Assembly: GCF_044647545.1 (NCBI RefSeq)
Contig: NZ_CP172818.1
Strand: one strand, 5' to 3'
Source of the DNA: Escherichia coli
GTDB taxonomy: Bacteria; Pseudomonadota; Gammaproteobacteria; Enterobacterales; Enterobacteriaceae
Length of the DNA: 64,000 nucleotides
In this document: in pieces, positions 32,403 to 36,478 of the stretch
Numbering within the stretch: position 1 is the stretch's first letter
Layout: each line of letters starts with the position of its first letter
The notes under the pieces: generated by a model
Database searches by the model: none
Told to the model about the DNA's origin: nothing
What the model saw: the letters and a program-made list of their open reading frames with translations, nothing else
Made by a program: the position numbers and the translations under genes

Positions 32403-34427
<2,025 letters not shown>

Positions 34428-34488
34428 TCAATGCTAAAAACCCCCGACAAGCGGGGGTTCGAAAAGGAGTTAATTTGCCTTAAGTGTA

Positions 34489-35487
34489 TCAGGCGTTGGC
34501 GTCTTTGACTTCGCGGATGATGTCCTGGTACTCGCGCAATTTCTGCGGAGTCATCATACGGCGCTGATCGTCAAGCACTACACCGCCCACTTCATCGGCA
34601 ATATGCTGCGCAGATTGCAGCATTAGCTTGAAGTTCTGCAGCTCGTCACCGTAAGACGGTACCTGCATAAAGATAGTGACACCCGGAGTAGTGAAATCCT
34701 TCATTTCAGGATCAAAGGTTCCCGGTTTCACCATATTCGCCAGGCTAAATAACGCCGGGCCGCTGCCATCCGGGCTAAGATGACGATGGTAAATATTCAT
34801 ATCGCCAAAAATGAAGCCCGCTTGTTGAATGCTGTTAAGAAGCAGTTCACCGTTTAGCTCGCTACCGTGATGCGCCGCGACGTTCATGATAATCACCGCT
34901 TCTTTGCGCTTCGGTTTATCCATAACTGGAGCCGGTTCCGCTACAGGCTCAGGCTGTGGTGCCGCTACAGGCTCTGCAGGCTGGAAAGCCTGTTGTGCCG
35001 GTTGCGGTGCTGAATGCACTGGCTGCGGCGCTGATGCGACCTGTGGCGAAACTGGCTGCTGCAACGGCTGTTCAGGCTGCGGCTGATAGGCAGGCTGCTG
35101 CACGGGTTGCTGCACCGGCTGCGCTGGACGCGGAGCATGTTGCGGCGGTACCTGAGCTTCAGGCGGCTGCTGGACCGGTTGACGCGGCTGCGCAGACGCA
35201 TAAGGCGGTTGGTACTGGTGTTGCGGCGACGGACGAGCAGCCTCATGCTCCTGGGCGTTAGCCGGGGCATGATTCACGCGGTGAACTCGAACCTCACCAA
35301 CGCCCTCATCATCTTCGACATCCTCGTCATAAGAATCGTCGTCACGTTTTGACTTCATTCGTTTTAATGGCCGATCGCGGAACATAGAAGATCGTTCTTT
35401 ACGGCTGGTCCAGAAACCATGTACCAGTAAAGCGATTATGGCGATCGCGCCAACAATGATTAATATCAGACGCAAATCCTGCATCAT
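34489..35487 (-). CDS. zipA: cell division protein ZipA (FtsZ membrane anchor)
   Basis: Start at reverse-strand ATG 35485-35487 ([28 protein letters not shown] anchor); long P/Q-rich linker; C-terminal FtsZ-binding domain; 332 aa. Confidence 0.92.
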
Positions 35488-35716
35488 TATATTCTCTGTT
35501 GTTCTAACACCTTGCCACCACGGCAAACATTTACTCACTAAGAGTATTTGCCGATTACCTCAAGTGCAAGTGCACTATTAACTTTCACAGCACAAAGATA
35601 GATGAAATCGTGCTTTTTGCTGTTTTTTCGAACATATCCTAACTGTCCATTGCGCAATTACCCGGTAAAATACGCAGAATTTTCCTGGGATTGGTCAAAA
35701 GGAGCTCATCCTGATT

Positions 35717-36478
35717 ATGGTTTCATCATTCACATCTGCCCCACGCAGCGGTTTTTACTATTTTGCGCAAGGCTGGAAGCTCGTCTCGCAACCTGGGATT
35801 CGGCGTTTCGTTATTTTACCGCTGCTGGTCAATATTTTGTTGATGGGGGGCGCATTCTGGTGGCTATTTACGCAGCTCGATGTCTGGATCCCGACGCTCA
35901 TGAGTTATGTTCCGGACTGGTTACAATGGCTGAGCTATCTGTTGTGGCCTCTGGCTGTCATCTCTGTGCTGTTAGTGTTTGGCTATTTCTTCTCAACGAT
36001 TGCTAACTGGATTGCCGCTCCGTTCAATGGTTTATTGGCTGAACAACTGGAAGCACGATTGACTGGCGCTACACCGCCAGATACCGGGATTTTCGGTATC
36101 ATGAAAGATGTGCCGCGAATCATGAAACGCGAATGGCAAAAATTTGCCTGGTATCTGCCGCGCGCAATTGTATTGCTAATTCTTTACTTCATCCCTGGTA
36201 TTGGGCAAACCGTCGCGCCGGTACTATGGTTCCTGTTTAGCGCCTGGATGTTAGCCATCCAGTATTGCGATTACCCCTTCGATAACCACAAAGTGCCGTT
36301 TAAAGAGATGCGCACCGCCCTGCGCACACGCAAAATCACCAATATGCAGTTTGGTGCTTTAACCAGCCTGTTTACGATGATCCCGTTGCTTAATCTGTTC
36401 ATCATGCCCGTTGCCGTTTGTGGTGCGACGGCGATGTGGGTCGATTGCTATCGCGATAAACACGCGATGTGGCGGTAA
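35717..36478 (+). CDS. cysZ: sulfate transporter CysZ
   Basis: 253 aa membrane protein; divergent from zipA, upstream of cysK. Confidence 0.9.

Follow-up and report, generated by a model that had tools for sequence, protein, structure and literature searches.

In-frame length alleles of the proline/glutamine-rich tether of ZipA in Escherichia coli

The low-complexity tract described here is very probably the P/Q tether of the division protein ZipA, in which in-frame length changes are tolerated and arise between short direct repeats; the window (the whole stretch of 64,000 nucleotides that was analyzed, from E. coli assembly GCF_044647545.1, contig NZ_CP172818.1) carries the common 332-aa allele. 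When linker length was tabulated across E. coli, we found two major alleles as well as five or more rare ones with in-frame deletions, all bounded by short direct repeats. Among 5,426 complete genomes the linker was not identical in all strains, and the length variation suspected from the window was therefore upheld. This variation is real and ordinary. Both major alleles are already catalogued in UniProt (ZIPA_ECOLI and ZIPA_ECO45), the role of the P/Q domain as a sequence-tolerant tether is established in the literature, and length polymorphism in zipA is a routine kind of variation that has little biological importance as it stands. A literature search on in-frame indels or repeat variation in zipA returned no relevant paper, and a 2021 mBio paper on ZipA contained nothing on the ZipA linker.

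The zipA gene and its P/Q domain

The list of open reading frames (ORFs) placed the coding sequence of zipA, which has 999 nt with its stop codon and specifies 332 aa, on the minus strand at 34489..35487, and its start (MMQDLRL...) at 35487 lies inside a larger minus-strand ORF (34489..35538). The RefSeq zipA of FDAARGOS_497 is the same 999-nt sequence (100% identical), and the protein is exactly ZIPA_ECO45, which represents its UniProt cluster (from E. coli O45:K1 strain S88, 332 aa), without a single difference. The ZipA chain of PDB entry 9iue matched the window protein over its full length (E = 4e-213), the Pfam domain ZipA_C (PF04354) was detected on aa 198-321 (E = 3.2e-46; 156.8 bits versus a cut-off of 23), and aa 189-332 were matched by the C-domain chains 1F46, 1F47 and 1F7W. 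Downstream of zipA lies ligA (32403..34418, minus strand), while cysZ (35717..36478, plus strand) is divergent upstream and is followed by cysK; the order ligA-zipA-cysZ is the same as in annotated E. coli chromosomes. As read from the translation, a single N-terminal transmembrane helix (aa 7-28) is followed by a stretch rich in R, K, D and E, the same as in K-12. The identification of the gene as zipA was confirmed by the domain, the PDB matches, the RefSeq identity and the gene order; judged from its sequence, the window gene is ZipA, the membrane tether of FtsZ, by every testable criterion. Given its 99-100% identity to the characterised protein, the product would be expected to bind the C-terminal peptide of FtsZ and to be required for division. 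Entry 9iue comprises 18 chains of full-length 328-aa ZipA, older structures being of the C-terminal domain only, and it may reveal order in some part of the P/Q domain within a complex.

The layout of K-12 ZipA consists of a transmembrane segment (aa 7-28), a charged domain (aa 29-85), a P/Q domain (aa 86-185) and a globular FtsZ-binding domain (aa 186-328) (PMC6904479). The passage of that article citing Ohashi et al. 2002 describes the P/Q domain as an unstructured 'flexible tether'. With the boundaries from PMC6904479, the N-terminal transmembrane anchor of the window protein (aa 7-28, a hydrophobic stretch in the translation) is encoded at 35404..35469 and the charged domain (aa 29-85), which did not vary among the aligned E. 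coli alleles, at 35233..35403, both on the minus strand. On the same strand, the P/Q domain or unstructured tether (aa 86-189, corresponding to K-12 aa 86-185 plus 4), placed by its composition as well as by these boundaries, occupies 34921..35232, and the C-terminal globular FtsZ-binding domain (aa 190-332), placed by PF04354 and the PDB matches, occupies 34492..34920. The P/Q domain falls within 34880-35260, the region that the original prediction had flagged as encoding a Pro/Gln-rich, low-complexity linker in GC-rich DNA. Both descriptions were accurate: 31 P and 26 Q account for 55% of the 104 residues, Pro, Gln, Ala, Val and Glu together make up 85%, and the quoted peptide was found in the translation. 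The GC content of the domain was 65%, compared with 50% in the remainder of zipA, and the local GC profile reached its maximum of 0.67 around 35000-35224.

The same tract had been described as imperfectly repeated, and this held against one null model and not against the other. Self-shared k-mers (6-10-mers) were in excess of dinucleotide shuffles, as none of 1000 shuffles reached the observed value at k = 6 or k = 8. However, when synonymous codons were shuffled and the protein was kept, the observed k-mer sharing was reached in 8-26% of trials. Tandem Repeats Finder, run on 34400-35600 with a minimum score of 30, reported no array, and a repeat search of the tract recovered short imperfect families only, with one pair of imperfect 12-nt units and a second pair spaced by 24 nt. 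The second pair consists of near-identical units encoding EPVAAPQP and EPVAEPAP at 34934..34974 on the minus strand (repeat family D2, 94% identity). The two motifs that had been named, ctgcggc and tgcaccg, proved weak, with 2 and 1 occurrences, respectively; the recurrent words of the coding strand were CAGCC (11 times) and CAGCAGCC (3 times). The tract is repetitive because the encoded protein is of low complexity, not because of a DNA-level repeat, and by DNA criteria it is not a tandem repeat or VNTR. Two ORFs of 101 aa each overlap the linker, one at 34956..35261 (plus strand) and one at 34965..35270 (minus strand, in a frame other than that of zipA). They encode Ala-rich or Arg/Ser-rich products and seem to be side effects of the periodicity of CAG/CCG/GCN codons and not genes.

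The 332-aa and 328-aa alleles

Alignment agreed with the lengths given in the original prediction, 332 aa in the window and 328 aa in K-12 (zipA of 987 nt), and the gap lay at the PVQQPVQQP motif, where the difference had been placed. Across the protein and DNA alignments, the window allele and K-12 ZipA (ZIPA_ECOLI) differed by one 12-nt in-frame gap, corresponding to an extra PVQQ in the window, and by R120H and S152P (R120 and S152 being the window residues); the gene, its neighbours and the domain layout were the same, and the proteins were 99% identical outside the indel. The 12-nt unit missing from K-12, GTGCAGCAACCC, was located at 35104..35115 (minus strand) by DNA alignment and breakpoint analysis, with a placement ambiguous by 8 nt. 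The second copy of the unit, GTGCAGCAGCCT, lies at 35092..35103 (minus strand) and has 2 mismatches to the first over its 12 bases. The indel is bounded by an 8-nt direct repeat (microhomology), GTGCAGCA; the window reads CAG CCG GTG CAG CAA CCC GTG CAG CAG CCT and K-12 reads CAG CCG GTG CAG CAG CCT. In K-12-type and in B2/E-type strains, residue numbers past approximately aa 124 differ by 4, which affects the carrying over of mutant or structural coordinates from one type of ZipA to the other.

Allele frequencies were estimated in 5,426 complete E. coli genomes with a 120-nt query from the window that spans the indel; identity of at least 95% over 120 nt was scored as the long allele and identity of 80-90% with a 108-nt span as the short allele. 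This query returned 2,374 long and 3,043 short records, and the reciprocal 108-nt query from K-12 returned 3,078 records at 95% identity or more, with partial high-identity alignments blurring the long and short counts by a few dozen. The estimated share among the 5,426 genomes was ~43% for the 332-aa allele and ~56-57% for the 328-aa allele. In a large protein collection, the exact 332-aa and 328-aa proteins each occurred on more than 1,000 contigs. In approximately 180 sampled records, the O157:H7 strains were all long and the K-12 or B strains all short; sampled records also included O145 and ATCC 25922 among the long alleles and BL21, O104:H4 and O111:H8 among the short ones. We take the long allele to be that of phylogroups B2/E and the short allele that of A/B1. 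One of the 5,426 genomes had no zipA match, and all the others had one at 95% identity or more; two zipA matches were on plasmid-labelled records, and some genomes had zipA in two places. These odd placements could be due to mislabelled replicons, duplications or assembly problems.

That the 4 extra residues stem from a sequencing or assembly error in a GC-rich, low-complexity region is hardly credible. Draft assemblies do often break in the tract, and many partial ZipA proteins of 189-200 aa start in the central linker, but ~2,300 independent complete genomes carried the long allele and ~3,050 the short one, and the contig counts of the two exact proteins likewise speak against an artefact. 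Therefore, this explanation was rejected on the allele counts. The partial proteins in drafts are entered as 'cell division protein ZipA, partial' and begin with AYQPQPEQP..., QPQPEQ... or QPVSPQ...; as they start in the central linker, short-read contigs often end in this low-complexity stretch of 65-67% GC, and linker lengths from draft assemblies should therefore be treated with caution.

The long allele is probably ancestral, and the K-12 form would then be a 12-nt deletion. The K-12 copy is exactly the chimera made by deleting between the two window copies, and the outgroups E. albertii, SCPM-O-B-8794 and E1V33 have at least two copies, the first of which ends in CAA, as it does in the window. 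In addition, the short alleles were more uniform (3,012 of 3,078 at 99% identity or more) than the long alleles (1,178 of 2,374), which fits a younger, derived allele. Contrary to this polarity, the nearest outgroup, MOD1-EC7003 (Escherichia sp.), has one copy; however, that copy keeps CAA and differs in register from the K-12 copy, and it looks like an independent loss. The single copy of MOD1-EC7003 would also suit the opposite polarity, in which the window allele is derived and a tandem duplication of 12 nt (slippage gain) gave a second PVQQ to an ancestor that had one copy, like K-12. Slippage works both ways, and such a gain is possible, although we regard it as unlikely. A new duplication would yield identical copies, yet the copies are mismatched at 2 of 12 bases (CAA CCC versus CAG CCT), 2-3 copies with the CAA of copy 1 are present in more distant Escherichia, and the long alleles are more diverse than the short ones; the CAA and the register of the MOD1-EC7003 copy, again pointing to an independent loss, also argue against a gain. 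Under the preferred polarity, a deletion in the K-12 form, the 328-aa allele most likely goes back to one event, the loss of a PVQQ unit between the two GTGCAGCA repeats, a single origin being based on the strain names in the sampled records and on allele uniformity. The 12-nt indel seems to be an old polymorphism that is tied to lineage. The original prediction that the PVQQPVQQP duplication may be a length variant was correct as to the length variant, whereas a duplication as a new event was not favored, since the difference is probably a deletion in K-12.

Rare deletion alleles and variation between species

By following the weakest matches of each search, we found five rarer alleles (295, 300, 303, 318 and 324 aa) in at least 37 complete genomes, all of them in-frame deletions; their counts are given as complete genomes among the 5,426 and as contigs in the large protein collection. 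The 295-aa allele has a 111-nt deletion at the 8-nt repeat CAGCAGCC (1 genome, 23 contigs). The 300-aa and 303-aa alleles have deletions relative to the short allele, of 84 nt at the 7-nt exact repeat CGCAGCC (12/13 as an imperfect repeat; 30 genomes, 484 contigs) and of 75 nt at the 4-nt repeat CAGC (1 genome, 19 contigs), respectively. The 318-aa allele has a 42-nt deletion at the 6-nt repeat CCGCCT (4 genomes, 155 contigs), and the 324-aa allele of MS1685 lacks 24 nt at 34951..34974, which is one EPVAxPxP unit, with a 13-nt repeat or breakpoint ambiguity (1 genome, 10 contigs). Every rare-allele breakpoint in E. coli was flanked by direct repeats of 4-13 nt. Together, the rare variants occurred in ~1% of genomes. 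They already carry RefSeq WP_ accessions and are real circulating alleles, not assembly errors. The 300-aa allele, with a 28-aa linker deletion, was found in 30 similar genomes of 5.3-5.6 Mb, including an O103 strain.

Most length variation in E. coli was located in a central linker segment at 35050..35169 (minus strand), as assessed by alignment coverage of the query. With this segment as the query, 62 records covered less than 80% and 8 genomes had no match, compared with only 3-4 such records for the flanking linker segments. Approximately 30 further genomes gave partial alignments only in the central segment, some of which may be megablast seeding artefacts and not new alleles. To catch further rare alleles, 137 hypothetical junctions of repeat-mediated deletions and duplications were joined into one composite query; it was dropped because, in a local BLAST test, the common alleles gave spurious gapped alignments of up to 183 bits that ran across adjacent junction units.

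To compare species, we scanned species-representative genomes once with a degenerate pattern, which yielded 110 loci, 94 of which had a complete ZipA (Enterobacteriaceae). ZipA length among these 94 loci ranged from 298 to 358 aa, and the non-linker part was constant at 206-212 aa where anchors could be placed. Linker length spanned ~60 residues across Enterobacteriaceae, and P+Q was mostly 37-57% in the linkers of other Enterobacteriaceae. All length changes, both in E. coli and across Enterobacteriaceae, mapped to the P/Q domain. At the E. coli indel site, a QPVQQP-type unit was present in 1-3 copies within Escherichia: E. albertii has QPVQQPQPVPQS with 2 or more copies, SCPM-O-B-8794 has two QPVQQP copies, E1V33 has three, and MOD1-EC7003, which was 98% identical outside the linker and the nearest outgroup found, has a single QPGQQP. 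Because the number of units varies from 1 to 3, the indel site recurrently gains or loses units on evolutionary timescales. The record of SCPM-O-B-8794 (NZ_JAATUR010000016.1) is named 'Escherichia coli strain SCPM-O-B-8794'; outside the linker, its zipA DNA shared only 96.7% identity with the window but 98.5% with Escherichia sp. E1V33, and its linker was of the E1V33 type (320 aa). To judge from these features, this strain is probably a member of a cryptic Escherichia clade and not of E. coli proper.

Origin and possible consequences of linker length changes

We propose that tether function would rest on disorder, composition and approximate length, and not on exact sequence. In-frame indels would be tolerated in the essential, conserved zipA gene because the tether needs composition and approximate length only. 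The restricted codon set (CAG, CCG, CCT, GTG and GCG) strews many short direct repeats over the tract; occasional replication slippage or microhomology-mediated deletion between these repeats would remove or add whole codons, and purifying selection on the essential gene would purge frameshifts. The one observation that points to slippage is the presence of repeats at the breakpoints, and in a repeat-dense tract some microhomology would be expected by chance at any breakpoint. We infer the slippage mechanism, the polarity of the indel and the near-neutrality of the length changes, the last of which was assumed. The C-terminal linker of FtsZ and the Pro/Gln-rich linker of FtsK are also low-complexity disordered spacers in which composition and approximate length outweigh sequence, and both differ in length between species. 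These are different proteins, and we claim no homology.

The occurrence of several independent indels, all at direct repeats, and the variation of unit copy number between species might instead suggest a contingency (hypermutable) repeat with frequent switches of copy number that produce rapidly reversible ZipA lengths. We consider this highly improbable. No tandem array was detectable, the repeats are imperfect and only 4-13 nt long, and the rare variants account for ~1% of genomes. Furthermore, the alleles were lineage-consistent in the ~180 sampled records (O157:H7 long, K-12 and B short), the 300-aa allele was confined to its one set of similar genomes, and all changes were in frame, which permits no on/off switching. 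Rare, tolerated in-frame changes remain the preferred reading of the tract.

A further explanation is that linker length is under selection, with lineages tuning the distance from the membrane to the Z-ring or the dynamics of ZipA. The fixation of the 300-aa allele in a successful lineage (30 complete genomes, 484 contigs) and the ~60-residue range of linkers across Enterobacteriaceae are in line with such tuning. However, clonal hitch-hiking accounts equally well for lineage-fixed alleles, and the unstructured tether, as described in the relevant passage of PMC6904479, predicts tolerance and not tuning; selection on length is therefore improbable as compared with tolerance. It is quite improbable, too, that natural tether-length alleles measurably alter division, i.e., the spacing between Z-ring and membrane, cell size or stress tolerance. 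The most extreme tether alleles are the one that lacks 37 aa and the one that lacks 28 aa, which is fixed in an O103-like STEC lineage. If such an effect were true, the linker, rich in direct repeats, would be a 'length dial' by which evolution could adjust an essential protein of the divisome.

The naturally occurring proteins of 295, 300, 303, 318, 324, 328 and 332 aa form a series in which up to 37 of the ~104 linker residues are missing from viable circulating strains, and this series provides a ready set of alleles for testing tether length in Z-ring anchoring. The genomes with the 300-aa allele came from humans, cattle, meat and a fly pool, and this allele could serve as a lineage marker.
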